A stretch of DNA of 64,000 nt, taken from positions 96,001 through 160,000 of IMG/VR virus record IMGVR_UViG_3300045988_181536. One strand, given 5' to 3'. A model generated the notes under the pieces. That model saw only the letters and a list, made by a program, of their open reading frames with translations, ran no database searches and was not told the origin of the DNA. Shown here one piece after another: positions 1,712 through 26,200 of the stretch (positions within the stretch are counted from its first letter, which is position 1; each line of letters opens with the position of its first letter). The position numbers and the translations under genes are program-made. This stretch comes from a virus.

Positions 1712-2320
1712 ATGTCACGTCCCAAAGGTTCAAAAAATAAACCCAAATTAAAAAATATTATTGCTGAAGAAATACTTCAGGATACCACAGGGCGCAAGAA
1801 ACGCGGACGTAAATCATCTCGTGAAAAGATTGCGATTCCTGTGGTAAATACTAATACTGCTGCGATTAAGTTAAATGTGACATCCAAGGTTCAAGCCTTA
1901 AAAGAGGATTCGGAAAAGCCCAAGCGCAAGCGTCGCACAAAAGCGGAAATGCAGCAAGCCAGGCAGCTTCAAGAATCTTCCGAAGTAATCACAGATAAAC
2001 AAAAATCGCAGCAGTCACTAAAGAAGGTTTTGCCGAAACTTGAAATCGGCAAACCTTTATTTTATTTTGATCAATATTTGCTTACAAAATTTGACAACAA
2101 CAATTTTGCGCTTTGGTTAACTAATAAAAAAGATCGCCAAGTATTTTTAGGATATTATTCCTTGGATATCATCGGATTTAAACAAGCTGTAACCAATATC
2201 GCAACTAGATTGCTGACAAAAGTTGATGACGATTCATACAAATCCCTATTAAGCGCCAATAGCGTATTAAAAGCTTTAGATTTGTTTAGGGTATTTTTAG
2301 ACACAAACTTTAAATCATAA
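1712..2320 (+). CDS. basic DNA-binding protein with AT-hook-like motifs
   Basis: The N-terminus is 'RPKGSKNKPKLK...GRKKRGRKSSREK...KPKRKRRTKAE'. These are GRP/RGRK-type basic hooks. Confidence 0.4.
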   Translation: MSRPKGSKNKPKLKNIIAEEILQDTTGRKKRGRKSSREKIAIPVVNTNTAAIKLNVTSKVQALKEDSEKPKRKRRTKAEMQQARQLQESSEVITDKQKSQQSLKKVLPKLEIGKPLFYFDQYLLTKFDNNNFALWLTNKKDRQVFLGYYSLDIIGFKQAVTNIATRLLTKVDDDSYKSLLSANSVLKALDLFRVFLDTNFKS

Positions 2321-2331
2321 ATATATGTATA

Positions 2332-2598
2332 ATGGACACTTATGATTTAATAGATAACCTTAGTGTCTATAGACATCTGCAATTTCCAAGAGAGATAATT
2401 AAAAATCCCAAAGTAATTATAAAAGTTAAAAATAAATTAACAAATGCTATATATTTTTTTGGATGTGCTACAATGCCATTAAAAAAAGAACTTGAAGAAT
2501 TTTTTCTGCCCATAGCACTTTGGGAGGAAGAACGTTATAACTCTTTGGAATTTGAAATGAAAAACTACCAATATCAAGTTTTAACTATCAACAAATAA
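2332..2598 (+). CDS. hypothetical protein
   Basis: ORF with an A-rich leader, no recognisable motif. Confidence 0.3.
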   Translation: MDTYDLIDNLSVYRHLQFPREIIKNPKVIIKVKNKLTNAIYFFGCATMPLKKELEEFFLPIALWEEERYNSLEFEMKNYQYQVLTINK

Positions 2599-2618
2599 CA
2601 ACCAGCACCAAAATTTTT

Positions 2619-3125
2619 ATGACTAAAAAATTAAAATTGGCCTTTTGGCTAACAGATAAAACCCTAGCTATGAAAATAGAGGAACAAGCCGGTTTGCCCC
2701 ATTTTAAAGAAACAGGGTTTGTGAGAATTAAAAGTTCACCTTATCTTGAAGATTGGGGGATTTACCTAAGGGGCAATTACTGGGCTGCTGATAATCAAGT
2801 TGTATCAAAATGTTTTATCAGCAACGAAGAGCGCGACGCCTATTTGCATAAGGTTATTAATGCAATCACGGACGAGCTTTTCACGGGCGAAGGAGAATTG
2901 AAAGTTGGTGAGATGTGCGAGGTGAAAGATGGGGAAGTTGGCGATTGGGAAAAAAGGAAGCTCATAGCAGTTCTTCCAGCGCAATACAGAGAGCGATTCA
3001 TTGTTGAATGGGAGGATTGCCCTACTGAGCACGCTTCTTGGACTTACGCCCGCCCAATAGCTAAGCACACAGAACCCACCGTTGAGGAGTGCGGAAACGT
3101 AGTCACCTACATTTGGGAAAAATAA
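2619..3125 (+). CDS. hypothetical protein
   Basis: ORF, no recognisable motif. Confidence 0.3.
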   Translation: MTKKLKLAFWLTDKTLAMKIEEQAGLPHFKETGFVRIKSSPYLEDWGIYLRGNYWAADNQVVSKCFISNEERDAYLHKVINAITDELFTGEGELKVGEMCEVKDGEVGDWEKRKLIAVLPAQYRERFIVEWEDCPTEHASWTYARPIAKHTEPTVEECGNVVTYIWEK

Positions 3126-5722
3126 ATATGATAATAAAATCTTTACATTTAAAAAACTTCGGACAACATTCCGATTTATTTTTGGATATTAAAGGTCCTG
3201 TAATAGGCATAGTGGGGCGTAATGGATCTGGTAAATCGACTATTGTTTCTGCTTTGCAATATGCATTTACCGGAGAAACTACCAATAATATTCAAACGTA
3301 TATTAAAAAAGGCGAAACTTCCGCCGAAGTAGAAGTTATATTTGAGAAAAACGGTAAAACAGGCGTTATTAGACGTGGCATTAATACCAGAACTACTACC
3401 AGAAGTCTGACCTATGGTGATCTTATTCAAAAGCCTATTACTAAAGCTAAAGAATTTGACGCCATGATGGATCAAATTTTGGGAGTAGATAAACAAAATA
3501 TCTTAAGCGCTATATTTATTGCGCAAGGAGAAATTGCCAATATTCTTAGTCCGAGACTTTCGGAACGACTGGGCTTGTTTGCCAAATTGTTAAATTTAAA
3601 TTTCTTGTCCAAAAGATCTTACGTAGTTGACCAGACTTTAAATAAACTGAGATCTTCCGTTACAGATGTTGGCAGTTTAAAAAATAATTTGGAAGTTAAA
3701 ATTGAAAATTTAAAATCCAAAAACGAAGCCTGGGAATCTGCAGTTCAGGAAGCAAATGCGAAATATGTTAGCGCAACCTTTGTCAAAGATATATGGGAAT
3801 CCGCATCAAATTATATTCATGCTCAAAATGAGCATACACGATGGGAAACTAAATATCAAGAAGCATTAGCAACTCTTGTTGAACAAAAAAATAAGCTAAC
3901 CTCTGTAGCTGCAATTGCAGGGGTAGATGAATCTACGCTTATTCCTAGTATTACGACACAAATCGAAAGCTTAGAAAGTCAATTTAACGAAATAAGCGCA
4001 TTTTTAAAAAATCAACAGCTGATTATTGACGCTTGGAATAATTTAGTTTCAGCCAGAGAAGAAAATAAAATATTTAACCAGCTAAAGACCACGGTGTTTG
4101 CTGACGTACCACCTGACGTTGTGGAAACGACTGTGAGTGAATTTGACGAGTATCAAAACAACACAACCAAATTTGAAGATTGTTGCCTAAAATCCGAAAA
4201 GTGGAAAAACAAACTGTCTGAACTTGAGCAAGATATAAACAAAGCAACTTCCAAGATACAACAGGCAGAGGCCGCTATTCCTCGATTGGATCAACAAAGA
4301 AATAACTTGTGTTCAGTTGTGGCACAGCTAGAAACGCTGGCGAAAACCAAGCAGAAGCTAAAAGACAAGGTTAACAAAGATACTGCCAGCTGTCCTGTAT
4401 GCGGTCTAAAACTGATGCTTGGACAAGAGGTTTGTGATGGAGATATTGAAAGCATAAAACAAAATATTCAAACGCTTCAAACATCCCAGATTCAGCCCTT
4501 GGAAATACAGTTAAAAGAGGCAACTTCTCTAAAAGTAAACAATGGAGCTATCTTAAGAGTTTCAGAGCAAGAATTTAAGCGTATAAAAGCGGACTATGAT
4601 GAGTGCCAAACGCTTATGGTAGAACTGAAGTCTAAAATAGATGCTTATAAAAACGACTGGCCGAAAATTACACAAACTATTTACACAGTAAAAGAAAAGT
4701 TGCCTGAATATAAAGTGTTGTGGGAAAAAAATCAACGCAACACTTTGCAGGATATGATTGATCAAGTAACCAAAACCTTACAATCATTTAATCTTGATGA
4801 AAACAACATAGATGTCGTCAAATTAAAAGAAATTGTCAGCGCAAAAGAACAAGAACTGTCTAAGCTAAGGTCTGAAATATCTAATAAAAAAGATTTGTTA
4901 AGTAGGGCCACTACGATTACAGGGTCTATTTCTGCGCAGGAACAAGAAATATCTAAAACTCAAGAGACTATATCGCAGCTTAATCAAAATCTAAAAAATC
5001 ATAAGCTAAAACAAATACGCGATACACTTGAGCAAGATATAAAAAATGCCTATATTCTGGAAACGTTTAACCACTTCGTAATGATTCCTGAGGTGCAAAC
5101 AATTGCATCTGCAGCTGTGGATGTATATAATCAGCTAAATGCTGAAAAACAAGTCATTGATAATTTGCAGCAGCAGATTGACAATGATAAAAACTTGATC
5201 AATAAACTAGAAGCTGAGAATGCCAAGGTTTATGGTGAAGTTGAAGAATTGGCACGCATAAAGCAACTCTTGCAACCTCAAGACGGCGTAATTAAAAACT
5301 ATATCAATTATTTGTTTAAGTCGATTTCCGGATATATCAGCGAGTATTTGGCGTATATGAATGCCAACTTTATCATTCAAATTGAAGATAGAGCGACTGA
5401 AGAAGACTTGTCATTTAAGTTCCAAAGAATCGATAAGCCTAACGACAAATATTGGTACCCAATGTATCAATTGTCAGGTGGTCAAAAGATTAAGTTGTCC
5501 ATAGCGTTTCAATTAGCTATTCAGAAAATTATTTGCCCTGATTTAGGATTCTTGGTTTTAGATGAACCTACTACTCATTTAGATGAAGAATCCATAAAAG
5601 CGCTTAGCGAACTCTTGGAAAATGTCGGAAATATGTTAACCGGACAAAACGGTCAAGTATGGATCATTGATCATAACCATATCATAGACAAAGCATTTAC
5701 GACTGCAATTAACCTAGATTAG
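3089..5722 (+). CDS. sbcC: SbcC/Rad50-family ATPase (T4 gp46-like)
   Basis: N-terminal Walker A 'GRNGSGKST'. Long coiled-coil middle with a zinc hook 'CPVCG'. C-terminal ABC signature 'LSGGQK' and Walker B 'LVLDEPTTHLD'. The true start is probably ATG 3128 ('MIIKSLHLKNF'). Confidence 0.85.
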   Translation: MRKRSHLHLGKINMIIKSLHLKNFGQHSDLFLDIKGPVIGIVGRNGSGKSTIVSALQYAFTGETTNNIQTYIKKGETSAEVEVIFEKNGKTGVIRRGINTRTTTRSLTYGDLIQKPITKAKEFDAMMDQILGVDKQNILSAIFIAQGEIANILSPRLSERLGLFAKLLNLNFLSKRSYVVDQTLNKLRSSVTDVGSLKNNLEVKIENLKSKNEAWESAVQEANAKYVSATFVKDIWESASNYIHAQNEHTRWETKYQEALATLVEQKNKLTSVAAIAGVDESTLIPSITTQIESLESQFNEISAFLKNQQLIIDAWNNLVSAREENKIFNQLKTTVFADVPPDVVETTVSEFDEYQNNTTKFEDCCLKSEKWKNKLSELEQDINKATSKIQQAEAAIPRLDQQRNNLCSVVAQLETLAKTKQKLKDKVNKDTASCPVCGLKLMLGQEVCDGDIESIKQNIQTLQTSQIQPLEIQLKEATSLKVNNGAILRVSEQEFKRIKADYDECQTLMVELKSKIDAYKNDWPKITQTIYTVKEKLPEYKVLWEKNQRNTLQDMIDQVTKTLQSFNLDENNIDVVKLKEIVSAKEQELSKLRSEISNKKDLLSRATTITGSISAQEQEISKTQETISQLNQNLKNHKLKQIRDTLEQDIKNAYILETFNHFVMIPEVQTIASAAVDVYNQLNAEKQVIDNLQQQIDNDKNLINKLEAENAKVYGEVEELARIKQLLQPQDGVIKNYINYLFKSISGYISEYLAYMNANFIIQIEDRATEEDLSFKFQRIDKPNDKYWYPMYQLSGGQKIKLSIAFQLAIQKIICPDLGFLVLDEPTTHLDEESIKALSELLENVGNMLTGQNGQVWIIDHNHIIDKAFTTAINLD

Positions 5723-7834: not shown

Positions 7835-8272
7835 ATGGCAACATCAAATACTTCTAAAAAACATACAAGATATTTTGTCGCAGTTATAAAACAATTTATC
7901 AATAGCACTTACGACGAGTATGCGGAAGATGAGGAAGAAACGGATGACGTAGATTCTGATACGCAAGTAAGTAATTTGGCTGCATTGCAAGAACTGAATG
8001 CAGTGGAACTTTTTTCAGTAGGCAAACAACTCTTGTTTCTGGAAACTGATGAGCTGGAAGAGGGTGATTTGACGAGTGAAGAAGCTGAAGAAATATTCAT
8101 AGATTGGCTAGAGAACTATGCTAATGGATGGGATTATCTTTCCATGAATCCAATAACGGTAGACGGCAAAAAAATGTATCAAGTGGACGAATCTCCCTTT
8201 GTTTTTAAATTTGTTAACATAAAAGAAATAACCAAAGAAATCTTTAACATATCTAAATATTTCGAACTTTAA
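7835..8272 (+). CDS. acidic hypothetical protein
   Basis: Glu/Asp-rich with no Cys, so it is not an E2. Confidence 0.3.
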   Translation: MATSNTSKKHTRYFVAVIKQFINSTYDEYAEDEEETDDVDSDTQVSNLAALQELNAVELFSVGKQLLFLETDELEEGDLTSEEAEEIFIDWLENYANGWDYLSMNPITVDGKKMYQVDESPFVFKFVNIKEITKEIFNISKYFEL

Positions 8273-8276
8273 AAAA

Positions 8277-8864
8277 ATGGACAACAACCACAATATCACC
8301 GTTAAATACCAAGCACTTCCCGGAGTTAAAGCTCCTGAAATCAAATCGGAGGGGGCGCATTGTGCAGATATTTATGCCAAACAAATGGTAAAGATTTATC
8401 CTGGAGAAATAGTTATCGCTAAAACAAAGCTATTTACAGAAATTCCTCAAGGATACGGGGCGCGTATATTGGAACGTAGCTCTATGCCTGTAAAACATAG
8501 GGTAACCGTAAAAGCTGGAACCATTGACAGCGATTATCGCAACGAATGGGGAGTAGTATTGTATAAAATGCCAGGACTAACGTTGCGGAATGCCCTGCGT
8601 ATCAATATAAAAAAATATAATGAAGACGTAGAAAATGAAGAAGTTAATAATAAAGGACTTCTCTCCAAACTGAGAAATTGGGCAGGGGTACTAAGCGATA
8701 CGGTGGAAGATTATATTTCCAGCAATAGGCCTACTGTATATCTGGAAGGTGATCGTATAGCCCAAGTTAAATTTGAGCCGACGGTCACGGCTAAATTTCA
8801 AGCTTCTGATAATCTTAGCAAAACTGAACGCAATATGGGCGGCTTTGGCAGCTCTGGAAAATAA
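8277..8864 (+). CDS. dut: dUTPase (trimeric dUTP pyrophosphatase family) with a long insertion between motifs IV and V
   Basis: Motif I-like 'SEGAHCADIY', motif III 'ERSSMP', motif IV 'GTIDSDYRNEWGVVL', motif V 'RNMGGFGSSGK'. About 75 aa are inserted between motifs IV and V. Confidence 0.85.
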   Translation: MDNNHNITVKYQALPGVKAPEIKSEGAHCADIYAKQMVKIYPGEIVIAKTKLFTEIPQGYGARILERSSMPVKHRVTVKAGTIDSDYRNEWGVVLYKMPGLTLRNALRINIKKYNEDVENEEVNNKGLLSKLRNWAGVLSDTVEDYISSNRPTVYLEGDRIAQVKFEPTVTAKFQASDNLSKTERNMGGFGSSGK

Positions 8865-8869
8865 AAATT

Positions 8870-9667
8870 ATGGAAATCGAAATTATAGATATTTCTAAAG
8901 CAAATGTGCCGAATGTGCGCTTTGACATAACTGCTTGGGAAAAAATTCAATTTATTGTGGACCATGAATCAAGGGAAATCGGATGGTTTGGAACAGTTGA
9001 TCATGATCCTAAAAGTAACACATATGTCGTAACAGACATATTTATTACCGAACAAAAACGTGATGGTGCTACATGCGACCAATCCGCAAAAGGAATAAAC
9101 GAACTGACTTCCGAAATTATTCGTGATCGATCATTAAGCTCCGAAGAAAAGCGGGATCGTTTAAACAAATTCAATTTTTGGGGACATTCTCATGTTAATA
9201 TGGGAGTAAGTCCTAGTAGTGAAGATATTGCCAATGCAAAAAGATTTGCCGGTAAGGACTTTTTGATTACCGGGATATTTAATAAAAAAGGAGACGTTCG
9301 CTTAGATTTTTGGGATTTTAAAAATAATCTACACTATGTGGAACTTCCTGTAAGAAAACGTTGGCATTTGTCTGATGAAACGGTTACAAAGATAATATCC
9401 GATATAAATACCAAAGTTAAAGAAATTACATTTGAGTCGTCTTATAGTTACGGTTCACCGCAACATTTACGTTCCGGCAGGGCTTTATTTGGAAGCCCAG
9501 CATCTGTTTGGAACAGCGAAAAACCATCTGTAAGTAACGAATGGATTGACCTTGACGGCGCTATACGCAGTAGCAATGCAAGTAGCAATAAGCTCGTAGA
9601 AAAAGTAGATAATAACGATTTCTTTTCTAAAACTCAAATCTCTCAAAAATCATGGATGCAGCATTAA
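8870..9667 (+). CDS. JAB/MPN (JAMM) metalloprotease-domain protein with a C-terminal extension
   Basis: Canonical JAMM motif 'HSHVNMGVSPSSED' (HxH-x7-S-x2-D) with upstream Glu residues. It overlaps the next gene by 16 nt, which suggests translational coupling. Confidence 0.75.
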   Translation: MEIEIIDISKANVPNVRFDITAWEKIQFIVDHESREIGWFGTVDHDPKSNTYVVTDIFITEQKRDGATCDQSAKGINELTSEIIRDRSLSSEEKRDRLNKFNFWGHSHVNMGVSPSSEDIANAKRFAGKDFLITGIFNKKGDVRLDFWDFKNNLHYVELPVRKRWHLSDETVTKIISDINTKVKEITFESSYSYGSPQHLRSGRALFGSPASVWNSEKPSVSNEWIDLDGAIRSSNASSNKLVEKVDNNDFFSKTQISQKSWMQH

Positions 9668-10368
9668 TTGATTTTGAACGGCAACATGCTTTCTTGGATC
9701 CAGCGAATTTTAACCAAAAAAATTATCGCATAGATATTATAGGAGCTGGAGCAACAGGATCTTATGTTGCATTTCAGTTAGCTAAAATGGGCATCCAAGG
9801 CATGCATATTTGGGATGCTGATGTCGTAGAAAGCCATAACCTTCCCAATCAGCTTTATGGACTTGAGGATGTTGGCAAACTTAAAGTAGAAGCCTTATCA
9901 GAGTATCTAAAAGAAATTGCAGGTATTGAAGTTGCAACACATAATGAATTTGTAAATTCGGAAACTGGAATGTTAGGGGATATTGTGTTTTTACTTACAG
10001 ACACAATGTCTTCTCGAAAAGAAATTTACGAATCGTGTTTAAAGTATTACGCAACGCAATTGTGTATTGAGACCAGACTCTCAGCAACCCAAGGAAGAGT
10101 TTATGCTTTTAACCCGACTGATCTAACGGATCAGATGCGGTGGGAAAAAACTTTATATTCCGATGAAGTCGCTGAAAAAAGCGAGTGTGGCACATCCATT
10201 ATGATGGGTGCTTCTTCTTCAATGATTGCGTCGATGGCCGTATGGCAATTTATAAAGTGGGTCACAAAACGTGACGATACCATTGATGAAAAATATCGAC
10301 TTGCAAATCCCGAATTTGAAGTGCTATTTTCCGTTTATCCGAATTATAACTTTCTTTTTAATCTTTAA
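9652..10368 (+). CDS. E1-like (ThiF/MoeB-family) adenylyltransferase
   Basis: Rossmann 'IDIIGAGATGSYVAFQLAKMG', followed by 'DADVVESHNLPNQLY' (ThiF 'D-D-V-x-x-SNL-RQ' equivalent) and a downstream conserved Cys. Confidence 0.75.
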   Translation: MDAALIDFERQHAFLDPANFNQKNYRIDIIGAGATGSYVAFQLAKMGIQGMHIWDADVVESHNLPNQLYGLEDVGKLKVEALSEYLKEIAGIEVATHNEFVNSETGMLGDIVFLLTDTMSSRKEIYESCLKYYATQLCIETRLSATQGRVYAFNPTDLTDQMRWEKTLYSDEVAEKSECGTSIMMGASSSMIASMAVWQFIKWVTKRDDTIDEKYRLANPEFEVLFSVYPNYNFLFNL

Positions 10369-10408
10369 CCCAACCTACCTAACTCAAAAACAAAAAAACT
10401 AAAATAAT

Positions 10409-10912
10409 ATGACAAAACAAGAAATTATCGAAAAAATTGCTGAAGCTGTTGACTTTAACGCTACACGTGTTCTGAGGGACACTGTAATTCGTGGCGCAGA
10501 TAAAATTATCTCGGAAGCGACCATGTTTGAATATTGGAACAACTTTGGCGAACTAAAACGCGATGTTATCGATTATATTGAAGAACATGAAGTTGAGGAG
10601 ACCCGTGAAATCGAAGAAGATGAACAAGAGGCTCCTTGTGACCATGTGCCTCAGGAATCCGAGGATCCAAACGCTACCAAATCTGTAACCATTGTACCGT
10701 TCCAGGCTATGTGCCGTGAAGTGCGTATTCCGGCATCCTGGACGTTGAAACAGATTTTGGATGCGTATCCAGATCTGAAAATTGACGTAGAAACCGGCAT
10801 GTGGGATATTCGCATAAATGGCGGTGGAGATGACGTTGCGCCTGATGCAGAATTATGCGTGCCCAAGGACGGAGACTTTATTCAGATTGCCACCCATTCT
10901 AAAGGCAACTAA
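10409..10912 (+). CDS. acidic N-domain fused to a ThiS/MoaD-like beta-grasp (ubiquitin-like) C-terminal domain; the C-terminus is ...SKGN, not GG
   Basis: The C-terminal ~75 aa 'VTIVPF...IRINGGGDDVAPDAELCVPKDGDFIQIATHSKGN' follows the ThiS/MoaD pattern (NG...V...L.DGD.I.I). It sits directly after the JAB and E1 genes. Confidence 0.45.
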   Translation: MTKQEIIEKIAEAVDFNATRVLRDTVIRGADKIISEATMFEYWNNFGELKRDVIDYIEEHEVEETREIEEDEQEAPCDHVPQESEDPNATKSVTIVPFQAMCREVRIPASWTLKQILDAYPDLKIDVETGMWDIRINGGGDDVAPDAELCVPKDGDFIQIATHSKGN

Positions 10913-10936
10913 CCTTTTTTAATTCGCTGTATATCA

Positions 10937-10977
10937 TGGCTCCCGATACGCAAATTGTCGGGAGCCATTTCTTTTTT
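10937..10977 (+). terminator. rho-independent terminator closing the dut-JAB-E1-Ubl operon
   Basis: 10-bp GC-rich stem 'tggctcccga/tcgggagcca' followed by 'tttcttttttc'. Confidence 0.7.
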
Positions 10978-11001
10978 CAAACTTTCACACACTAAAAAAA
11001 A

Positions 11002-14000
11002 ATGAAATCTTTAGAAACAATTCTCGCAAAACAAAATTTCGACGATTTACAAGTACAGTTTTATTCTCCTGGGAAACAAACTGTGTTACTTGAAGCATCA
11101 AAAGCTACTGTAGATTATTTGGTTAACTTTAGTAAGTCGGCACTGCCCTGCAAATGGATTACGGGAATTTTTTCTACTTATGAAGAAATAAAATCAGACG
11201 TATCACATGAATCTATTGGGCTTTTCTTTAAAAAGTACGACATAATAACAAATGCCAATTTACTTGAAATAAATCTTCGCAGTTTAACACACGGAAAGAC
11301 TTATTTAAATGAATTTGAGGTAGATTTGTGTTTCAATTATAATAAGCCTTATTGTTTGTTTCCTGAATTTGGGCGTCTAATATATGCATGTTTTACGCAA
11401 ACCATACAAATAAAACGTGACATTATAAATTATCTATTAAATCATTGTTATATAAAACTGCATAGTGTATGTAGATCAAATGCTTTAGAACGTCAGGATG
11501 CTTTGTTTTGTCAAGATTGGTTTGGAAGTAAACGTTTGCAAGAGAGGAATGCATTAACTCCCTTTCAAGGATTAAAAATTTGGCCTAAACTTGATAAGTA
11601 TTATTATAAATTTAATTATCATAAAGCTAAAAATTTTTCTCCTTATATTATAACTAAAATTTACAGTGAACACTTTGATCTTGAAATTGAAGTTGATAAA
11701 ATAGCTTCTTTTATTATAAATGTAGACCCTTCGACCAACAATGTGGAAACATTTCGTGAGTCTGCAGGAAATAAGATAAGTAATTTACTTCAAGAAATAT
11801 CCGATAAGTTTTCAAAAAAACTATTTGAGAACAAAAAATATATTAAACTCTTTAAAAAAGCAGAAAAACATCTCATTTTTGTTCCTAATTTTACTTCTAA
11901 ACACTTATTAAATAATACAGAACACACTAAAGAAGAAATTTTAAATTTTATTTTATTCGGCCTTACAAACAGCTGGAATGAACTAAATTCTTATGGAGTA
12001 CCCAGTGTAAGTTTACGTAATTATCAAAGTCTTGCGGAACCTATAAGATTTAAAGAAGACTATGTTCGCAATTTAATAAAAGTTATTTGTGAGTTTATAT
12101 CGTTACTTTCCGACATGTACAGTAGTGTTAGAAGTATCACAAAGGCTCTGCAGTGTTTTGATTGTGTAAAAAGTTATCTTGATTTTATTGACCATATACT
12201 AAACAGTTATAATAACAAGTTAAACCGTTTTAAAGGTATAAGTTTAAATTGCAAAATCTTTTACGCTATTCCTGACAGTAAATCAGATATCTTCTATGCA
12301 GAATGGTTACAAGGCATTGATCAAAACAAAGAAACTTATACAAAAAAGTATAATTTTAACATTTTCTCCAATTTATTTGATGTTACAGCTTTTGTACCAA
12401 AATATATTGATTCAAGTTTACAAGAATTTAAGATAAAAAATCTTGCGGAAGTATTAAGCATCAATACTGTCACTCGCCAAACGCTAAATACCTATATGGA
12501 AAGCAATCTTCCTATATGGGGAACCTTGTCTGAAAATATATTTCTCTCACCTCCACTTAGTTCAACTGTATCTCTGAACTTAAAACGCTCGTACAGTATT
12601 TCAAATCTGATATGCAACACTTTGTCTAATCCTGATGACCGTGTTTATTCAGAGTATGCAAGAAACTTGTTATTTTCAGAGACAACGAATAATAGTTTCT
12701 TTACGCTTACTACAAAAGAACATAGAAGTCTTGCAACTTATATTAAACCGCACGATGTAGAGCAATATTCAGTGTCTCCGATATTTAATTGGGATAAAAT
12801 AATATATTCACAAACTAAATATCAAGTTTCTACTTCACCAAATTTTTACTGTATAAATGCTAATCCAAATGAAGATCATATTAGTTGCGAATTGCCATTA
12901 TACAATGATACACTTACTGAATGTTATGGAAAATTTTATCCTATTATAAATCAAATCGACATTCCGGTATGGTATATACCAGGAAAAGTCATTCATAATC
13001 TTACTCGTTATTGCGACAATGGTATTGGATCAACATTTTTTACAAATGTTAGAAATCTGGTTATTAAATATTTGTGCGATGGATCAAATATCATAGATCA
13101 ATTATTTTATTTGGCTGTGAATCGAGAGGAGAGTGTGCTTACATCCTCTTTTGAAGATTACGTAATCGAACAAGCGCTGACCCATCCGTTGGTTCAAAGA
13201 CCATGGAATGAGTTTTTTGCAAAAAAACTCCGCAATAAAAAACCCAGTCCTCCAAATATTGTAAAGATTAATACAATTGTCAGCATTAATGGAAACTCTG
13301 TAACATCAAATGATGAGATCTTGGATTTTATTGAATCTAAAAATTTAGCACAATATTTTGAATTATATCGTAAAAATATTCAAAAAAATTGCCAAGATTT
13401 AGATGATTTAATTGAGAAAAAAAATAACTTATTGCTTAAAGTAGCTAAATATCAAACAGATATTCTTAATAAAATTAATCAAAATAATGGAATTGATTTG
13501 TTTAAATCCTGCGACGAAACGCTGAAAGCTTCTTGGATGAAACAAATCAATTTGTTGCAGCAAAACAAACGTATTATAAGCATTAATTTTGATCTGGTTA
13601 ATAAGCGTTTGGAAGTGGTTTTTAAACCGAAAAACATTGTAGATCCACGTACGGACATTGAATATGATATAGGTACAATTGCTGTATCTTGGCCTTTAGA
13701 TATAAATTTTAATGGTTGTATTAATCCTATATTGAATGTACACAATCAACTTAAAGTTTACTCTAAAAATATTAATCTGGAGGAATTTGGAAGTCTTTGT
13801 AGTCAAATTACTTCTTTAGATAATACGGAAATTGTTAACTTAGTGGATCAGTTATTTGAACCTGTGCACATTAAAGAAGCAAAGAATGTATTGTCAAGGA
13901 ATACACCAACAACGAATTTAACAATTTACGGAGAAAAAGCTGTACCTCATAGTTATCCGGAAGGGTCAGGAAGCGTATGTTTTGGAAACTACTCTTCAGC

Positions 14001-14919
14001 AATCAATAAAGCTGCAGAAGAAGTCAATCTCATGAATTTGGCAGGATTGACAATGTTAAATGCTGAATCTGCAAATTTAAAAGACACTTGGGGTAAAAGC
14101 TTACCCATGTTTCAAATCGCTGCGGGAAAATATTCAACCTTAGATCTTGCACAAAAAACATTTGAAAGGAAATTATTACGTAATAAAAAATACATTATTC
14201 CGGAATTAGGTAATCCTGATACCTATGTGCCGCATGGTCTTGATGCCATACAAGCTATGTTAGTAGCATGCACCAATAATACATGGCCTAAATTCTATAC
14301 CATTTGGGAAATTAATAGTAATGCTTACATGATAATACAATTTTTAAGCAACCTGTATAAAAGGATAGAACCTTACAGGGCTAATGCACGTGAGCTTGTA
14401 AGAAAGTTGTTTAAGGAAATTTGTGCGCGTATATATAAACCATTTACAGATCAAGAGCTTGAAGATTTAAATGCAAAAACTAAATTTAAATTTCAAGACT
14501 CCTCTATATGGAGATATATAACACGTGAAAATACAGATATTGACGTAGATAAGTGTAAACTATTTACAACAGATTATTCTTTAGAAGAATATTTTAATAA
14601 GTATACATTTAACTATAGTAGCTATGAATATTTAAACAGTTTGAAAGATTATGTAGATCTTGATCCTGAGAAAATGGAGCAAGTATTTGAAGAAAGTATT
14701 GAATGTGTTGTAAGAAATTGTTTATTCTATAAAGGTGATTATGAAGTGAAAAGATTTATGCCAAGACAGATTTTAGAATTTGAAGATCTAATTTTTGGCA
14801 AAGATTTTTACTTAATTGAAACAAACGATAAACATTATAATTTCTTGCTAAGAATTTGTAATAACTATTCATATAAAAGTATTACTGTAGAAGTTTTAAA
14901 GTTATTTAAAAAATCTTAA
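11002..14919 (+). CDS. giant hypothetical protein (1305 aa), compositionally atypical (very AT-rich, N/K/Y/I/F-rich)
   Basis: Uninterrupted 3.9-kb ORF. No catalytic motifs recognised. GC is markedly lower than in the flanking genes. Confidence 0.5.
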   Translation: MKSLETILAKQNFDDLQVQFYSPGKQTVLLEASKATVDYLVNFSKSALPCKWITGIFSTYEEIKSDVSHESIGLFFKKYDIITNANLLEINLRSLTHGKTYLNEFEVDLCFNYNKPYCLFPEFGRLIYACFTQTIQIKRDIINYLLNHCYIKLHSVCRSNALERQDALFCQDWFGSKRLQERNALTPFQGLKIWPKLDKYYYKFNYHKAKNFSPYIITKIYSEHFDLEIEVDKIASFIINVDPSTNNVETFRESAGNKISNLLQEISDKFSKKLFENKKYIKLFKKAEKHLIFVPNFTSKHLLNNTEHTKEEILNFILFGLTNSWNELNSYGVPSVSLRNYQSLAEPIRFKEDYVRNLIKVICEFISLLSDMYSSVRSITKALQCFDCVKSYLDFIDHILNSYNNKLNRFKGISLNCKIFYAIPDSKSDIFYAEWLQGIDQNKETYTKKYNFNIFSNLFDVTAFVPKYIDSSLQEFKIKNLAEVLSINTVTRQTLNTYMESNLPIWGTLSENIFLSPPLSSTVSLNLKRSYSISNLICNTLSNPDDRVYSEYARNLLFSETTNNSFFTLTTKEHRSLATYIKPHDVEQYSVSPIFNWDKIIYSQTKYQVSTSPNFYCINANPNEDHISCELPLYNDTLTECYGKFYPIINQIDIPVWYIPGKVIHNLTRYCDNGIGSTFFTNVRNLVIKYLCDGSNIIDQLFYLAVNREESVLTSSFEDYVIEQALTHPLVQRPWNEFFAKKLRNKKPSPPNIVKINTIVSINGNSVTSNDEILDFIESKNLAQYFELYRKNIQKNCQDLDDLIEKKNNLLLKVAKYQTDILNKINQNNGIDLFKSCDETLKASWMKQINLLQQNKRIISINFDLVNKRLEVVFKPKNIVDPRTDIEYDIGTIAVSWPLDINFNGCINPILNVHNQLKVYSKNINLEEFGSLCSQITSLDNTEIVNLVDQLFEPVHIKEAKNVLSRNTPTTNLTIYGEKAVPHSYPEGSGSVCFGNYSSAINKAAEEVNLMNLAGLTMLNAESANLKDTWGKSLPMFQIAAGKYSTLDLAQKTFERKLLRNKKYIIPELGNPDTYVPHGLDAIQAMLVACTNNTWPKFYTIWEINSNAYMIIQFLSNLYKRIEPYRANARELVRKLFKEICARIYKPFTDQELEDLNAKTKFKFQDSSIWRYITRENTDIDVDKCKLFTTDYSLEEYFNKYTFNYSSYEYLNSLKDYVDLDPEKMEQVFEESIECVVRNCLFYKGDYEVKRFMPRQILEFEDLIFGKDFYLIETNDKHYNFLLRICNNYSYKSITVEVLKLFKKS

Positions 14920-15335: not shown

Positions 15336-15407
15336 TCCCAGGTAGCTCAGCGGTAGAGCGGACGACTGTTAATCGTTTGGTCGATGGTTCAATCCCATCT
15401 CTGGGAG
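15336..15407 (+). tRNA. tRNA-Asn (anticodon GTT)
   Basis: Cloverleaf read by hand. Acceptor 'TCCCAGG/TCTGGGA', D-arm 'GCTC-AGCGGTA-GAGC', anticodon stem 'GACGA/TCGTT' with loop 'CTGTTAA' (GTT), T-arm 'GATGG-TTCAATC-CCATC'. CCA is not encoded. Confidence 0.85.
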
Positions 15408-18268: not shown

Positions 18269-20584
18269 TCAGAATACAAAGGCTTTCCTTATTTCATCCA
18301 TCAAGTTATTATGGTTTTCCCTAATGGTATTTGCGCATACCTGAAGATAAGCGGGATACCACTTAATGTTGGATGTGCCCTTTGATACAACATTTTTCAT
18401 CCAAGAAGTAAAGTATCCTATAAAAGATACGTGGTCAATTGCATTCTTGAAATCCTTAAAGCAATCGGCATATAAGCTGCCTTTTCCGGTGCCGAAGGTT
18501 TTATGTACAGCCAAAGCTACAGCTTCAAAGATTTGTTGAATATAGGGCGTTTTGTCACAATGACCTTCAGCCATTTCAGTAAACAATATTTGCAGAATAT
18601 TTGACAAATGGTCATAAATCGCAGCTTTATCTTTGCAACGGAAACCTAAGAAACGGGTATTTATAGGTCCTTGATAAAGCGGATGACCTTGATAATCCGG
18701 CAGATCATTCTCTACAGGCATATTGTTAATATACTCCACAACCTTTGGAGGCAGCTGATCTAAATTTCGCAGAAGACGCAGTGACTGCATGCTGTGAATT
18801 AAGCGCTTGGGGAACAACGCCCTGCTTTCATGACCGAATAAGTCGCAAATCCTAAGTTTCTCTTCCATAGGAATGCTGTTATATTTTTCATGTCTGCAAA
18901 GATAAGAGCACATGCTCCTATGCCACCAGTTAGGCATAACATCCGCCTTTACATTCGGATTTTTATTTAACTGATCCGCGTGTAAAATCTTTTGATAATC
19001 ATTTATAAATTCATCCAACAAAGACTTAGGTTCAGGAATAGATCCAGGGAACAAAGCGTCCTCTGCCATAATAACTTCAAGCGTAGGACGGAAACGCTGT
19101 ACTTTGCCTATGCTGCGAACATTTTTCCGAAGTTCTTTAAGTTCTTCAATGGCCTCATTTAAATCTATTTCATATTCGCTTTTATTTATTCCAGTCCAAG
19201 CATTTCCTGGCTGAATAGGAAATACCTTTTCAGGTTCTTGATTTAACCTTGCGGCCTTTTCTGCAATTGCCTTCTGCCTTTGTTCGAAAATGGTTATGCT
19301 GTAATCTATTGCTTCCTGAATGTCTTTAATATGGTTGCTGCGACGTTCCAGAGATTTAAAAAACCTAAACGGAGCCAAATAAACCGCATGCAAAGATTCG
19401 CTTAAAAATCTATAACTCATCACTGAAGAGAATTGTTTTTCAGGACGAATATATTTTCCAAGATAACGCTTGCTTATGGACTTAAGATCCTTTTGAAATC
19501 TTTCCCATTTGCGGCATTTATCCGCTTGAATTGTATCCTCTAAAGATTCTGTGCCCTGGGGCTTGGCTGGAGGAGACCATTTGAGGGCTTTTCTGTCCAC
19601 CTCCATATAGTCTATTATGGTTTTATTGGAATCATTTCCTGTATGTGCGCTGCAAGCAACTCTAAGTTCATTCAACATCTTCCAATAGCTTTTTTTGCAG
19701 AATCTGCCACCCATAGAATTGATAAGATTCTTAAGATAAAGAATATTGGGAAGATGATGCTGTATATCACCTTCTCGCTTACGTTCTAAATCAAGATAAA
19801 GCGAATGATAAAACTTGGTTCCGTGAAGCTTATTGGATATGAACTTGAAATTCATCATTACCGCCATATTCGGATTTGACGGGCAATAATCCAAAGACAT
19901 GTCTAAGAGATGAAGCGCATGTGTATCTGCCAAGGAGCAATGATTGTAATTGGCATATTGTATGCGCTTTAATTGAGGATTATAACCTGCAAAAAACTTA
20001 ACAGACTTAAGCCCCCTTTCTGGAACATTGCAACGACGATCAGATAAAGTCCAGCCGTAACCGTTGGTGGCTTTAGGGTTTTTTTCAGCCCATTCCTTCT
20101 CAAGCTGTGCTCTTTTCTGAGCACGTTCCTTTGCCTGTTGCTCCTTTTTTAAGGCTGCTTCTTTTTCCAGCTTTTCCTTTTTTAAAGCCTCTTCCTTGGC
20201 CTTTCTTCTCTCTGCAAGCATCTGTTGATAGATTGCTCTGCCTTTTGCAATAGCTTGTCTTCTACGCTCTCTGTCTTCTTCGGAGATATTTAAAGGCTTA
20301 GTGACTTTGTAACCCTTGGGGCGTCGAAAACGATATTTGTCCAACTTGGCTTTAGCTAATTCTAAAACTTTTTCTGAAACCGTATATTTCCTCTTGCCAG
20401 TTTTCGTGGCTCTATCTGCAGCCACTAAATTCATGCAACATTGTACTAAAGTTTTTTGATTTGCTTTAAGCTTATCTTGATCCAAACGTCCAGTTCCACC
20501 CCCGCGAGCTCTGTGCACCTTCTCGTTCAGGATGCTCTTAGACATATCGCAGTATTCTTCTGTATTACCAATAGTTGTTGCCAT
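18269..20584 (-). CDS. hypothetical 771-aa protein with a Lys/Glu coiled-coil segment; the only large minus-strand gene besides tnpB
   Basis: 'KAKEEALKKEKLEKEAALKKEQQAKERAQKRAQLEKE' coiled coil. No catalytic motif recognised. It is transcribed divergently from the 1.2-kb non-coding hub. Confidence 0.5.
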   Translation of the reverse strand: MATTIGNTEEYCDMSKSILNEKVHRARGGGTGRLDQDKLKANQKTLVQCCMNLVAADRATKTGKRKYTVSEKVLELAKAKLDKYRFRRPKGYKVTKPLNISEEDRERRRQAIAKGRAIYQQMLAERRKAKEEALKKEKLEKEAALKKEQQAKERAQKRAQLEKEWAEKNPKATNGYGWTLSDRRCNVPERGLKSVKFFAGYNPQLKRIQYANYNHCSLADTHALHLLDMSLDYCPSNPNMAVMMNFKFISNKLHGTKFYHSLYLDLERKREGDIQHHLPNILYLKNLINSMGGRFCKKSYWKMLNELRVACSAHTGNDSNKTIIDYMEVDRKALKWSPPAKPQGTESLEDTIQADKCRKWERFQKDLKSISKRYLGKYIRPEKQFSSVMSYRFLSESLHAVYLAPFRFFKSLERRSNHIKDIQEAIDYSITIFEQRQKAIAEKAARLNQEPEKVFPIQPGNAWTGINKSEYEIDLNEAIEELKELRKNVRSIGKVQRFRPTLEVIMAEDALFPGSIPEPKSLLDEFINDYQKILHADQLNKNPNVKADVMPNWWHRSMCSYLCRHEKYNSIPMEEKLRICDLFGHESRALFPKRLIHSMQSLRLLRNLDQLPPKVVEYINNMPVENDLPDYQGHPLYQGPINTRFLGFRCKDKAAIYDHLSNILQILFTEMAEGHCDKTPYIQQIFEAVALAVHKTFGTGKGSLYADCFKDFKNAIDHVSFIGYFTSWMKNVVSKGTSNIKWYPAYLQVCANTIRENHNNLMDEIRKAFVF

Positions 20585-23217: not shown

Positions 23218-26200
23218 ATGGAAGAACAAGTAAAAACAAAAACCACGGATAATCCGGATCCGTTTACGAATGAGTTTTCCCGACAGATTTGGGAAGTAAC
23301 CTATAAAACGCAAAATGAAAAGAGTATTACAGATACGTGGAAACGTGTGGCAAATGCTGTAGCCAATGTAGAAAAGGATGAAGAATCCAAAAGATTTTAT
23401 GCTGAGGCTTTTTATGAGATTTTAAAAGATTTTAAGTTTATACCCGGAGGTCGTATATTGGCCAATGCAGGGGGTAGTTGTAAGAATGTCTCTCTCGTCA
23501 ACTGTTATCTCTCACCTGCTCCCAAATACGACATGGATTCCGTTGAAGGAATTATGGAGGTATTAAAGAACCAGGTTTTAACTTTAAAATCTGAAGGAGG
23601 CTGGGGTTTAAATTGTAGTTTTATTCGTCCCAGAGGTTCTTATATAGAAGGCATAGGTGCCAGAACCCCCGGTGCTGTAAAGTATTTGGAGCTGTTTGAT
23701 AAAAGTTCCGAAATTATTACGGAAGGTCCAGGAGAGTATTACATAGAGAATAAAGAAAAAACGCCTAAGAATGAAAAGAAGAAAATTCGCAAGGGTGCAA
23801 TGATGCTTTGTTTAAGCTGCTGGCATCCTGATATATACGAATTTATTACTGCCAAACAAAAGCCGTTTCATCTAACTAAAATGAATATGTCCGTAAATGT
23901 TACCAATGCTTTTATGGATATTTTAAATAGAGTTAACGAGCTTGTTAAAAACAATGCTTCGCAGGAAGAAATCGATGCTGTTGATTTTTGGCAATTGAGA
24001 TTTCCTGATACGGCTTTTGAAAAGTATAAATCCGAATGGGATGGAGACTTGGATAAATGGGAGAAAAAAGGTTATCCTGTAAAAGTTTATCGTACAGTAA
24101 GGGCTACTGATCTATGGGAAGCCTTAATGCAGTCTACCAGCAATCGTTCGGAGCCTGGAGTTTTATTTCTCGATAGGGCAAATGAGACACATTGCGCAAA
24201 TTATATCCCTGAGTTGCAATTAGTTGGGACAAATCCTTGTCTTACTGGAGATACCAAAGTTGCTGTTGCTGACGGGCGTACAAATGTGACTATTAAAGAG
24301 TTGGCCGAAGCTGGCAGAGATGTTCCGGTGTTAGCTTGTGATAATGCTGGCAATATTGTTACAAAGTTAATGCGTAATCCTCGTATTACAGGCTATAATA
24401 AAGATATTTATCGAGTGACTTTAGATGATGGTAATCATATTGATTGCACGTCTAATCATAAGTTTAGATTGTCTGATGGAACATATAAAGAGGTAAAAGA
24501 TTTATCAACAGGTGTAGCTTTGCACACAAATACGTTAAGTGTAGAAGAGTATAAACGTTATTTAGTGCAGGAAGTTTTAAATACGGAAATTACCCCTAAT
24601 CTTCAGCTTGATTCCGTACAACAACTGTGTGAAGAAGCAAAGTCTCAGGGTTATGAGGTAAAAATAGATAATAACATAGTTTTGGTTAAGAGGGTTTGTG
24701 AGGAATGTGGAAAAGAACATTTTGTTCCATTTACTCATCGCGAAATTGCGTTTTGTTCTCTGGAATGTTTAAATACCCATTTGAATAAAGAAAAAATCGC
24801 TGCCAAAACCACAAATACTGATTTAGATGTAATATCTGCTGAGGATTGGCCTGTAAGGTTTGTTTCGTCTATTGAATATATAGGCAAACAAGATGTCTAT
24901 ACCGGTACAGTTGATGATGTGCATAATTATTGCGTTGGGATGTTTGAAACTGTGAATGAACATGGACATCCAAAATTTTATATACTTAATAATCAGCAGT
25001 GCGGAGAGCAGGTTTTATACAGCGGAGGATGCTGCAACTTAGGATCCATCAATCTTACGGCATTTATAGAGTACGATGAAACTAAACATGCCGCCGTTTT
25101 TAACTTTCAGAAGTTCTCTGATATTGTTCCTTATTGCGTAAGATTCTTGGATAATGTCATAGACATTGCCAATCTGCCTTTGGAAGAATATAAATATATG
25201 GCTGAAAGTTATCGAAGAATCGGGCTTGGTATTACAGGCATAGGCTCTGCTTTAATGATGTTGGGTCTAAAATACGATTCTAAGGAAGCTAAAGACTTTT
25301 TAACTAAAGTTTTTGATGTTTATAATTTCTTAGGGATAAGGGCAAGTATCGCTTTAGCTAAATGTAAAGGTGCGTTTAAAGGATGCAATCCTGCAAAACA
25401 TGCTGATAATATAAAATATACGTTTAGACATTTACCGAAGTATATATTGGATGCTTTGCAAAAAGAATTGTTAGAAACTAACGGCATCCGCAATTCAGCC
25501 TTGTTCTCAGTCCAACCGACAGGCAATACAGGGTGTCTAGCCAATAATATTTCAGGCGGTGTGGAACCTGTGTTTCAGTTAGAATACTACAGAATTGTTG
25601 GAGTGCCGATTGTTCCTGAAAGCATAAAAGATAAATGTCCTAGGTTCTGGGAGGGGGATTTTACTCCGAACAATTATTTCAAAGAAGTTAAATACGCAGA
25701 TTTTACTTACTTGTCTTACGTAACTGAAGCTGGCCAAGAATATCAGATACATAAAGATAGAGGTCTGTGTGAAAAAGTAAAAATTCGAGATTATGCTTAC
25801 CAATGGATCTTGGATCATAATTTAGAATATCCACAGGAAGTTTTTACAACAGCTATGCAACTACCTGTTGAATCTCATTTGGAAATTCTGAAATTAGTAT
25901 CTGCACATTTGGATTCCGCTGTAAGTAAAACGATAAATGTTGGCAAGGATTACCCTTATGAACAGTTTAAGAATGTTTATTTAGATGCATATAATAGCGG
26001 AGTAATAAAAGGAGTTACGACTTATCGTGAGGGTTCTATGAGTGCAGTATTGCAAACTACGGATTCGAAAGATGACGTAAATCCTACATCTACATCGATT
26101 ATTCATCCTACTATTACTGCTGAGAAACGTCCTGATATATTGCCGTGTAGAGTATTTTTTAGAACGGTAAAAGGAATATCTTATTACTTTATTGTAAGTT

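Follow-up and report, generated by a model that had tools for sequence, protein, structure and literature searches.

To our knowledge, the conjugation of ubiquitin-like proteins (Ubls) in prokaryotes has so far been characterised either as a host defence against phages, in type II CBASS (signalling against phages that relies on cyclic oligonucleotides) and in the Bil and Bub systems, or as sulfur-carrier chemistry. Viruses of eukaryotes encode ubiquitin, ligases and deubiquitinases. Here we describe a locus in a 64,000-nucleotide (nt) stretch of phage DNA, positions 96,001 to 160,000 of the IMG/VR record IMGVR_UViG_3300045988_181536 (hereafter 'the window'), which codes for a predicted JAB metallopeptidase, a ThiF-type E1, a Ubl and, past a terminator, a very large protein with a probable E2-like domain. 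We interpret this set as a probable phage-borne form of prokaryotic Ubl conjugation, apparently undescribed before. A full-text literature search, with most subscription journals outside its coverage, returned no description of a phage-encoded E1/JAB/Ubl(/E2) system.

Among known systems, the phage set works most like Bil (BilABCD, bacterial ISG15-like; Chambers et al. 2024; Hor et al. 2024; preprint PMC10557695). Each combines four parts, namely a Ubl, an E2 (probable in the phage system), a JAB deubiquitinase and an E1, and both include Ubls with several beta-grasp domains or with extra N-terminal domains. In both, the Ubl ends in a small residue followed by a short extension. For type II Bil, experiments showed that the JAB protein BilC cuts BilA at the bond joining the conserved Gly97 to the terminal Ala98 (PMC10557695), and removal of the extension is predicted for the phage Ubl. 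Nevertheless, the phage system differs from Bil in E1 architecture and genomic owner. Bil is a host-encoded anti-phage defence, whereas the system described here is found on phage contigs. In the BilD E1, of about 500 amino acids (aa), inactive and active adenylation domains are accompanied by a Zn site and a mobile Cys domain (PMC10557695), whereas the phage E1s have 220-240 aa, a single domain, no CxxC motif and an Asn where the NLxRQ motif has its Arg. Also unlike in Bil, the phage E2-like domain has no sequence match to E2 models and is found in proteins of 270 to 1305 aa, and the Ubl tail reads K-G-N.

The phage system falls outside CBASS, the ThiS/MoaD pathways and MccB. It shares with type II CBASS a JAB partner and an E1 whose Rossmann part matches Cap2 models, but its substrate appears to be a dedicated beta-grasp Ubl rather than the C-terminus of an enzyme, and its E1 and E2-like proteins are separate and phage-encoded. 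No member of the CD-NTase family was detected among the neighbouring open reading frames (ORFs) scanned in the window (positions 53-26664). Like the Bub operons (bacterial ubiquitination-like, '6E/DUF6527'; Ye et al., PMC11601596), it includes a peptidase-E1 fusion (BubCD; here the JAB-ThiF fusion protein P0021), and the peptidase, as predicted for the phage system, frees a functional Ubl from a fusion precursor. However, Bub uses oxyester (Ser) intermediates and an E1 without catalytic Cys, whereas the phage E1 and E2-like proteins keep an invariant Cys. On the phage side, TAPI and TAPK of lambda and T1 also associate a phage Ubl with a JAB protein (JAB-NlpC/P60), with predicted cleavage after the terminal Gly of a beta-grasp domain (Iyer et al. 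2006, PMC1779556). In contrast with the present system, which is found in replication and early modules together with an activation machinery, the TAPI/TAPK pair has no E1 and no E2 and belongs to the tail module. We found no other phage Ubl and JAB pairing described, and a comparative survey of jumbo phages mentions no E1, JAB or Ubl (PMC7824862).

Four plus-strand ORFs of 195, 265, 238 and 167 aa occupy positions 8277-10912 of the window according to the ORF list, separated in that order by a 5-nt gap, a 16-nt overlap and a 40-nt gap. The sequence-only reading of the window had described four co-oriented, packed genes with a 16-nt overlap between JAB and E1 and a terminator, all of which were found in place. 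The first ORF is treated further below. The features that make up the system are as follows, with coordinates in the window.

8870-9667, plus strand: predicted JAMM/MPN+ (JAB) metallopeptidase, 265 aa, with the MPN core at about aa 15-160
9185-9226, plus strand: JAMM zinc-site motif HSHVNMGVSPSSED (HxHx7Sx2D), from the homologue alignment
9652-10368, plus strand: minimal single-domain E1 of the ThiF/MoeB adenylyltransferase type, 238 aa (Pfam ThiF)
10186-10188, plus strand: codon of E1 Cys179, invariant in 34 phage E1s, in the crossover-loop region
10409-10912, plus strand: Ubl precursor, 167 aa, with a helical part (aa 1-62), an acidic disordered linker (aa 63-89) and a predicted beta-grasp domain (aa 90-164)
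10676-10900, plus strand: predicted beta-grasp (ThiS/MoaD/ubiquitin-like) domain of the Ubl, from the AlphaFold2 model, structural matches and the Ubl hidden Markov model (HMM)
10901-10909, plus strand: K165-G166-N167 tail of the Ubl, predicted JAB processing site, invariant in 11 homologues
10936-10978, plus strand: intrinsic-terminator-like hairpin (13-bp stem, T run) that separates the Ubl gene from the giant ORF
11002-14919, plus strand: giant ORF of 1305 aa without Pfam or PHROG family, which carries the c1 domain, the rest being without recognisable domain
13351-14160, plus strand: c1 domain, aa 784-1053, probable E2/UBC-like carrier, with the motif VPH-x8-C993-F-G ... NAESANLKDTWG
13978-13980, plus strand: codon of Cys993, the invariant Cys of c1 (alignment A6)

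The JAB protein of the window harbours the full JAMM motif E...HxHx7Sx2D. We found 86 homologues, and E36, H106, S107, H108, S116 and D119 are invariant in the 53 that were aligned. The AlphaFold2 model has a predicted local distance difference test (pLDDT) score of 78.6 overall and >90 in the core, the tail (aa 198-265) being mostly of low confidence. Foldseek comparisons of this model with the PDB identified Rpn11 (6.9e-8), CSN5, BRCC36, AMSH-type proteins and the Pyrococcus PfJAMM1-SAMP2 complex. By sequence, the Pfam Prok-JAB match is below threshold (E 0.06, 13.7 bits for a cut-off of 25), and the PADLOC JAB models match at E about 0.02 at best. The protein is a predicted JAMM/MPN+ metallopeptidase with a deubiquitinase-like MPN fold, and the canonical JAMM metalloprotease of the sequence-only reading is borne out by both the invariant motif and the modelled fold.

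The E1 matches Pfam ThiF with 96.6 bits (cut-off 28.1, E 1.6e-27). Its Rossmann part is recognised by the PADLOC Cap2 E1-E2 models (4e-15), and ThiF/MoeB models rank first among the NCBIfam models, with 70 and 46 bits, far under the cut-offs of 159-275. Sequence matches in the PDB are PaaA (8.5e-10), Cap2 (7tsq, 5.7e-6), MccB (about 6e-6 to 8e-6) and ThiF (1e-4), together with an uncharacterised ThiF-type protein, TcdA and Uba4. The second-best match corresponds to entries 9egb/9egc/9egd, a 264-aa 'THIF-type NAD/FAD binding fold domain-containing protein' (E about 5e-6); these entries average seven chains each, and a literature search gave no paper on them. The C-terminal half of the E1 alone yielded chance matches at most against PDB sequences.

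Across 34 phage E1s that share 25-69% identity, the residues G31, G33, D55, D57, N63, Q67, K78, D117, R142 and C179 never vary. Judging by MoeB and ThiF, they include the nucleotide loop, the Lys that binds phosphate, and the ligands of ribose and Mg. The Gly-rich loop reads G31xG33xxG36, and the N-terminal Arg finger, R10 in the window, is mostly Arg or Lys in the family. Based on the offsets of the alignment with ThiF (1zud; query 25-202, chain 29-207), Cys179 falls at about ThiF position 184, which makes it a candidate thioester or persulfide cysteine. The minimal ThiF/MoeB-type E1 that had been proposed thus keeps the adenylation-site residues (nucleotide loop, Mg-binding Asp, Lys and Arg finger) together with a conserved Cys, and the loss of an adenylation-competent site that had been envisaged as an alternative was not found.

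The 167-aa protein has no family match in Pfam, PHROG, PADLOC or NCBIfam, and its relatives are few (3 in an indexed search; 10 at E <=0.001 in an exhaustive profile search). Its AlphaFold2 model, based on 10 sequences, consists of a strand-strand-helix-strand-strand arrangement at aa 90-162 with pLDDT values of about 80-86, and the best structural matches include MoaD/ThiS-family proteins. The C-terminal domain is predicted to be a beta-grasp fold, as the sequence-only reading had proposed for the C-terminal half of the protein. Small ORFs of about 70 aa that end exactly in KGN adjoin E1 or JAB genes across many unrelated lineages, and an HMM built from them matches the window Ubl at aa 91-167 and its close relatives at about 1e-17. 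The ThiS, Ub-Mut7C and RnfH matches of these small relatives are all sub-threshold (E 0.02-0.2), and a search of the GenBank phages with one small Ubl gave no match.

The KGN tail of the window Ubl is flexible in the model (pLDDT <50), with a penultimate Gly and no Gly-Gly. In the window subfamily, KGN is invariant and followed by 0-2 further residues. We took a census of the tails of 92 unique Ubl ORFs, with the following counts.

KGN followed by 0-4 residues: 32 of 92 ORFs
KA[A/N/D/S]xA-type: 37 of 92 ORFs
KGA: 3 of 92 ORFs
KS[A/N]: 2 of 92 ORFs
KGN followed by a long extension: 5 of 92 ORFs
xGN followed by 0-4 residues: 2 of 92 ORFs
other: 11 of 92 ORFs

The common denominator of these sequences appears to be an invariant Lys, then Gly, Ala or Ser, then a disposable extension. 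The sequence-only reading had noted an ending in SKGN rather than GG; the lack of GG holds, but this is not an oddity of a single protein, since Lys, a small residue and an extension form the signature of a presumably processed precursor in the whole family.

Two or three tandem Ubl domains are found in 9 of the 92 ORFs, several of which have KGN at every junction (e.g. loci L010, L024, L027 and L045). The protein P0093 comprises two beta-grasp domains, each ending in VKGN. In locus L010, the gene that follows JAB and E1 codes for three tandem beta-grasp repeats, each terminated by KGN: ...MIKGN continues into VNSV..., ...KVKGN again into VNSV..., and the last ...KVKGN into DLV and the stop codon. 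Such arrays parallel polyubiquitin genes. Based on the tail census, the tandem arrays and the BilA precedent, we infer that JAB would cleave between the Gly and the Asn of K-G-N.

Variant arrangements were found in some loci. A 272-aa protein of loci L050, L051 and L054 (about positions 2526-3346) is composed of two tandem Ubl domains ending in GN and an unrelated C-terminal region of about 136 aa, which processing would release. Besides its triple-Ubl precursor, locus L010 codes for a 90-aa Ubl-like paralogue (4709-4981) immediately 5' of JAB that has no KGN and ends in ...FPKHYSID. In L011 (NCBI contig JABLTO010156956.1 of a metagenome-assembled genome, 5858-6898), three tandem paralogues of about 112 aa ending in ...(M/L)(D/N)CLLL are found between JAB and E1, with no adjacent KGN Ubl. 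They may represent alternative substrates with a Cys-containing tail.

We analysed the genetic environments of this JAB subfamily by scanning IMG/VR for the JAB motif, which identified 359 contigs, and fetching 80 loci. Clusters of JAB proteins were defined at 70% identity, and their neighbourhoods were searched with iterated HMMs. E1 is found near JAB in all 65 clusters, the Ubl in 53 and a further protein family that we called c1 in 63; all four components are present in 51, and most gaps correspond to truncated contigs. The genes often overlap by 1-4 nt. ORF clustering showed that c1 and its relative c2 (270-720 aa) directly adjoin JAB in nearly every locus, frequently as overlapping genes, typical orders being c1-JAB-E1-Ubl, Ubl-E1-JAB-c1 and Ubl-c2-JAB-E1. 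In the lineage of the window, there is no c1 gene 5' of JAB; c1 is found 3' of the Ubl gene, past the terminator. A c1 HMM built without this lineage matches the 1305-aa ORF at aa 783-1055 (E 1.3e-7). The giant ORF has a counterpart of 1264 aa in locus L008.

The c1 family is characterised by the pattern (H)PH-x7-C-x-G ... FLExxNxxDxAG, which in the window reads VPHSYPEGSGSVC993FG ... NAESANLKDTWG. In alignment A6, C144, G146, D179 and G182 are invariant, and P135 and H136 nearly so. In UbcH5, the HPN motif precedes the catalytic Cys85 by 8 residues, and about 30 residues separate Cys85 from the PNxxDP motif. The motif spacings of c1 equal those of the UBC pattern HPN-x7-C...LLxxPNxxDP. An hhalign comparison of A6 with five UBC sequences gave an E value of 9.1e-5 and a probability of 59% over 120 aligned columns. 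The register places HPH on HPN, the c1 Cys on Cys85 and NxxD on N114/D117. The 24 controls (the E2 alignment in reverse, 20 E2 alignments with shuffled columns, and three unrelated alignments) gave E values of 0.02-0.86. The c1 domain is probably E2-like, an assignment to which we give about an even chance. A Pfam scan of c1 yielded scattered single-member matches, among which SidC_N (8e-4) is regarded as due to chance, and a word-indexed protein search retrieved three proteins with no informative fusion.

We consider it fairly probable that the locus is the window copy of a four-part phage-borne Ubl conjugation system that would work in the following way. The 167-aa protein would be a pro-Ubl, with a beta-grasp domain and its flexible ...S-K-G-N tail carried by an N-terminal helical domain and an acidic linker. 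The JAMM peptidase would trim it, most likely after Gly166, removing Asn167; in relatives it would cut tandem poly-Ubl precursors after the Gly of each K-G-N junction, and it probably also reverses conjugates. The 238-aa E1 would then use ATP to adenylate the exposed C-terminal carboxylate and be loaded with the Ubl as a thioester on Cys179. The next acceptor of the Ubl would be Cys993, in the E2-like domain of the neighbouring 1305-aa protein. This protein may select the target through its large non-catalytic parts, in the manner of an E2/E3 hybrid, and early in infection the Ubl would finally be joined to lysines of proteins from the host or the phage. Possible roles include host takeover, regulation of replication proteins and counter-defence.

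Several observations weigh against this interpretation. In the E1, the Arg of the canonical NLxRQ motif is replaced by Asn66 (HNLPNQ in the window), which is nearly invariant in the 34 phage E1s, whereas PaaA and 9egc retain NRQ. The E1 has neither CxxC zinc motifs nor a separate Cys domain, and the peptide-modifying enzymes PaaA and MccB are found beside Cap2 among its best PDB matches. The combination of JAB, E1 and Ubl also exists without conjugation, in the sulfur-carrier pathways CysO/Mec+ and QbsE/QbsD. For the Ubl, the invariance of the Asn after K-G in the window subfamily is unusual for a residue that is merely discarded. As the Asn is invariant and the extra residues always follow it, the cleavage position is uncertain, a mature C-terminal Asn being the alternative. 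The case for an E2-like c1 consists of motif spacing and a profile-profile alignment of moderate probability, and a broader c1 alignment of 118 sequences keeps the register with an E value of 8e-4 and a probability of 25%. Curated E2 profiles (Pfam UQ_con and Prok-E2, PADLOC E2) were unmatched by 26 c1 members at E <=1, and the c1 profile had no match among PDB sequences at E <=10. Finally, a strong terminator separates the E2-like gene from the Ubl gene in the window.

Archaeal SAMP/UbaA/HvJAMM1 and Thermus TtuB/TtuC are precedents for conjugation without an E2. By analogy, JAB, E1 and Ubl might suffice here, the E1 alone conjugating the Ubl to lysines and c1 being a scaffold, a specificity factor or itself a target. 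In favour of this, all three members of the triad are present and conserved, a Cys of the E1 is invariant, E2 families in Pfam, PADLOC and PDB sequences do not match c1, and in the window c1 belongs to a separate transcription unit past the terminator. However, c1 is linked to JAB and E1 as tightly as the Ubl is, and its invariant Cys is part of a His...Cys...Asn/Asp pattern in register with the UBC motifs, well above controls. The SAMP and Ttu Ubls end in Gly-Gly and also serve tRNA thiolation or molybdenum cofactor synthesis, whereas the phage set has an E2-like partner and no sulfur-pathway partners among its annotated neighbours. We regard an E2-independent system as unlikely. The sequence-only reading had proposed a tagging triad and stated that there was no E2. 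The JAMM peptidase, ThiF-type E1 and beta-grasp Ubl are indeed found together, but the E2-free form is probably wrong given the conserved c1 partner with an E2-like active-site signature beside JAB and E1.

A sulfur-carrier function, which the sequence-only reading had also suggested, would involve a ThiS/MoaD-type Ubl, the C-terminus of which is exposed by JAB and adenylated by the E1 so that its thiocarboxylate provides sulfur for a thio-modified nucleotide, cofactor or base. Features in keeping with this are the MoaD/ThiS-family structural matches of the Ubl and the sub-threshold ThiS matches of its small relatives, the single-domain E1, as in ThiF and MoeB, with NCBIfam models of these families ranking first, and the location of the genes among dUTPase, ribonucleotide reductase and replication genes. 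Nevertheless, annotation of the recurrent neighbours gave c1/c2, a reverse transcriptase, a DNA polymerase of family A and otherwise proteins whose function is unknown, with no sulfurtransferase, rhodanese, cysteine desulfurase, ThiG/MoaE-type synthase or PP-loop thiolase among them. All E1 scores are far under the equivalog cut-offs, the Ubl C-terminus is K-G rather than G-G, the conserved partner looks E2-like, and conjugation systems are typically marked by fusions of Ubls and by poly-Ubl arrays. This lack of a sulfur-pathway partner, together with the poly-Ubl arrays, speaks against the sulfur-carrier reading, the chances of which appear slim.

A purely counter-defensive role, in which the phage JAB strips host Bil or CBASS conjugates as Cap3 does while the E1 and Ubl act as decoys without productive conjugation, appears improbable to us; the sequence-only reading had suggested counter-defence against Bil-like host systems as one possibility. 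The JAB fold matches deubiquitinases, the E1 resembles the E1 modules of Cap2, and host Bil systems target phage tail proteins (PMC11601603). However, decoys would need no conserved adenylation site, E1 Cys, poly-Ubl precursors or Cys-bearing partner across 51 of the 65 lineages, and the match of JAB to the PADLOC models is marginal at E about 0.02. Lastly, it is very improbable that the mature Ubl ends in ...KGN and that the E1 turns its terminal Asn, via a succinimide, into a nucleotide-linked or activated species by MccB/PaaA-like chemistry, as when microcin C matures: although the window Ubl and its close relatives have the Asn, with extra residues after it that mirror the 'GG + cap' precursors of ubiquitin, PaaA and MccB are among the best E1 matches and the active-site Arg is Asn throughout the E1 family, the KGA, KSA and KA[ANDS]xA tails of the wider family fit a small residue with a disposable extension, the chemistry of MccB has no use for a Cys such as the invariant Cys179, the E1 begins at the Rossmann fold without an N-terminal peptide-clamp domain (MccB aligns to E1 aa 22-95 only, from about residue 113 of its chain onward), the substrate is a predicted folded beta-grasp with an E2-like partner, and the Bil JAB takes off a single residue that follows Gly.

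The JAB subfamily is essentially viral, belongs to uncultured phages and is always found in replication or early-gene neighbourhoods. The 359 IMG/VR contigs are phage contigs of 40-210 kb with replication genes around the locus. A single GenBank phage record, from an uncultured phage, contains a member, and 30 contigs were found among 185,579 species-representative genomes, all of them contigs of metagenome-assembled genomes, 3-244 kb long. The sequence-only reading had called the arrangement unusual. It is indeed absent from cultured phages, but the number of IMG/VR contigs with this JAB subfamily shows that it is not rare.

Relatives of the E1 with about 33% identity are found in cultured phages. 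In the Xanthomonas jumbo phage PhiXhv-12 (PV764601.1, locus L004), an 892-aa protein with a c1 domain (2238-4916, E 7e-20) and the motif IHPHMAV...SLCLGSF...FLATPDRND is encoded directly 5' of an annotated 'thiamine biosynthesis protein'. Its N- and C-termini are extremely Cys-rich and may bind zinc. The Erwinia phage Ep032, the record of which is unannotated, has an equally similar E1. In some loci (L069-L092 type, e.g. L090 6477-7622; L011 8027-9193; L053; L067), a reverse transcriptase of about 380 aa is encoded directly 3' of E1 (Pfam RVT_1 6e-16, PHROG 2825), its cluster covering 33 loci. We rejected it as a general component of the system, as it is specific to one gut-phage lineage.

The crAss-like phage cr85_1 (gp029/gp030, phiCrAss001 annotations) and Flavobacterium phage FpV4 (gp51/gp50) resemble the window in that a protein with the HxHx7Sx2D motif is encoded directly 5' of a ThiF-like E1 in the replication module, the latter being about 33% identical to the window E1. 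The annotations of this gene pair are 'ThiF' and 'metalloprotease-domain'. Unlike in the window, the JAB proteins belong to another subfamily, and a C-terminal domain of 130-200 aa is attached to the Ubl. Two genes 5' of the HxHx7Sx2D protein, gp027 of cr85_1 (L002 1933-2589) and gp53 of FpV4 (L003 1646-2515) have N-terminal Ubl-like regions of about 88 aa ending in [I/V]KSG. Between these genes and those of the HxHx7Sx2D proteins, gp028 (L002 2664-3779) and gp52 (L003 2587-3849) share the motif YMHSH-x15-17-C-x-G. Kinship of gp028 and gp52 with the E2-like c1 family was not retained, the hhalign E value of 0.025 being within the control range. The gene sets of these two phages may represent a diverged version of the four-part system.

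The source of the window is an uncultured phage of about 172 kb with a G+C content of about 35%. Genes around the locus code for a primase, a ResIII and a DnaB-like helicase, Mre11/SbcC-like proteins and a ribonucleotide reductase that contains an intein. A blastn search of 50,697 GenBank phage records with the 2.7-kb region gave no match, and the DnaB-like helicase has no tblastn match in GenBank phage records. Since the searches of GenBank phages with this region, JAB, the small Ubl and the helicase were near-empty, the source phage appears to be without close cultured relative. Immediately upstream of JAB, the first of the four packed genes is the following.

8277-8864, plus strand: dUTPase, 195 aa (Pfam dUTPase 2.8e-18, in two stretches; PHROG 135, 3.5e-37)

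All five motifs of trimeric dUTPases are present (aa 26-33, 66-70, 81-92, 160-166 and 185-195), motifs III and IV being separated by an insert of about 67 aa. The sequence-only reading had included this dUTPase in the operon. However, it is found alongside JAB and E1 solely in the window's own lineage (ORF cluster c21), which rules it out as a component of the tagging system and makes it a lineage-specific neighbour.

Between the helicase and dUTPase genes, positions 7835-8272 code for a strongly acidic protein of 145 aa with runs of Asp and Glu and no family match, which has a 156-aa counterpart in locus L008. A role as a DNA mimic or in anti-restriction is conceivable. One tRNA-Asn(GTT) gene is found just 3' of the giant ORF (15336-15407); its association with an Asn-terminated Ubl was considered and is taken as a probable coincidence. 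The large subunit of the class I ribonucleotide reductase (23218-26664, 1148 aa) contains an intein (Pfam Intein_splicing, aa 349-573) and a C-terminal TSCPD domain. On the minus strand, a 771-aa ORF without Pfam family (18269-20584), one of only two ORFs of at least 120 aa on that strand of the window, is within a stretch of reversed GC skew.

Cultured phages whose kinship is only partly established are candidates for further work, namely PhiXhv-12 (c1 and E1), Ep032 (E1), and the phiCrAss001-type phages and FpV4 (JAB and E1). With ...K-G as the end of the mature Ubl, as predicted, digestion with trypsin would be expected to leave one Gly attached to each modified lysine. The very small E1, of about 230 aa, and the divergent E2-like domain would be useful for studying the evolution of such cascades.

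A phage-encoded set of Ubl, E1, JAB and probable E2 would place conjugation machinery on the virus side of the conflict, comparable to the ubiquitin, ligases and deubiquitinases of eukaryotic viruses, and would amount to a new class of functions by which phages take over the host or counter its defences. More tentatively, and a little short of an even call, tailed phages may run a complete ubiquitination-like cascade, with a cryptic E2 in large, variable E2/E3-hybrid proteins, that tags host or phage proteins early in infection. If so, it would be the first such cascade known in viruses of prokaryotes, widespread in uncultured phages, and crAss-like and Flavobacterium phages may have diverged forms of it. 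For the Bil, Bub and CBASS conjugation defences, the cascade could represent an evolutionary source or a mirror image.

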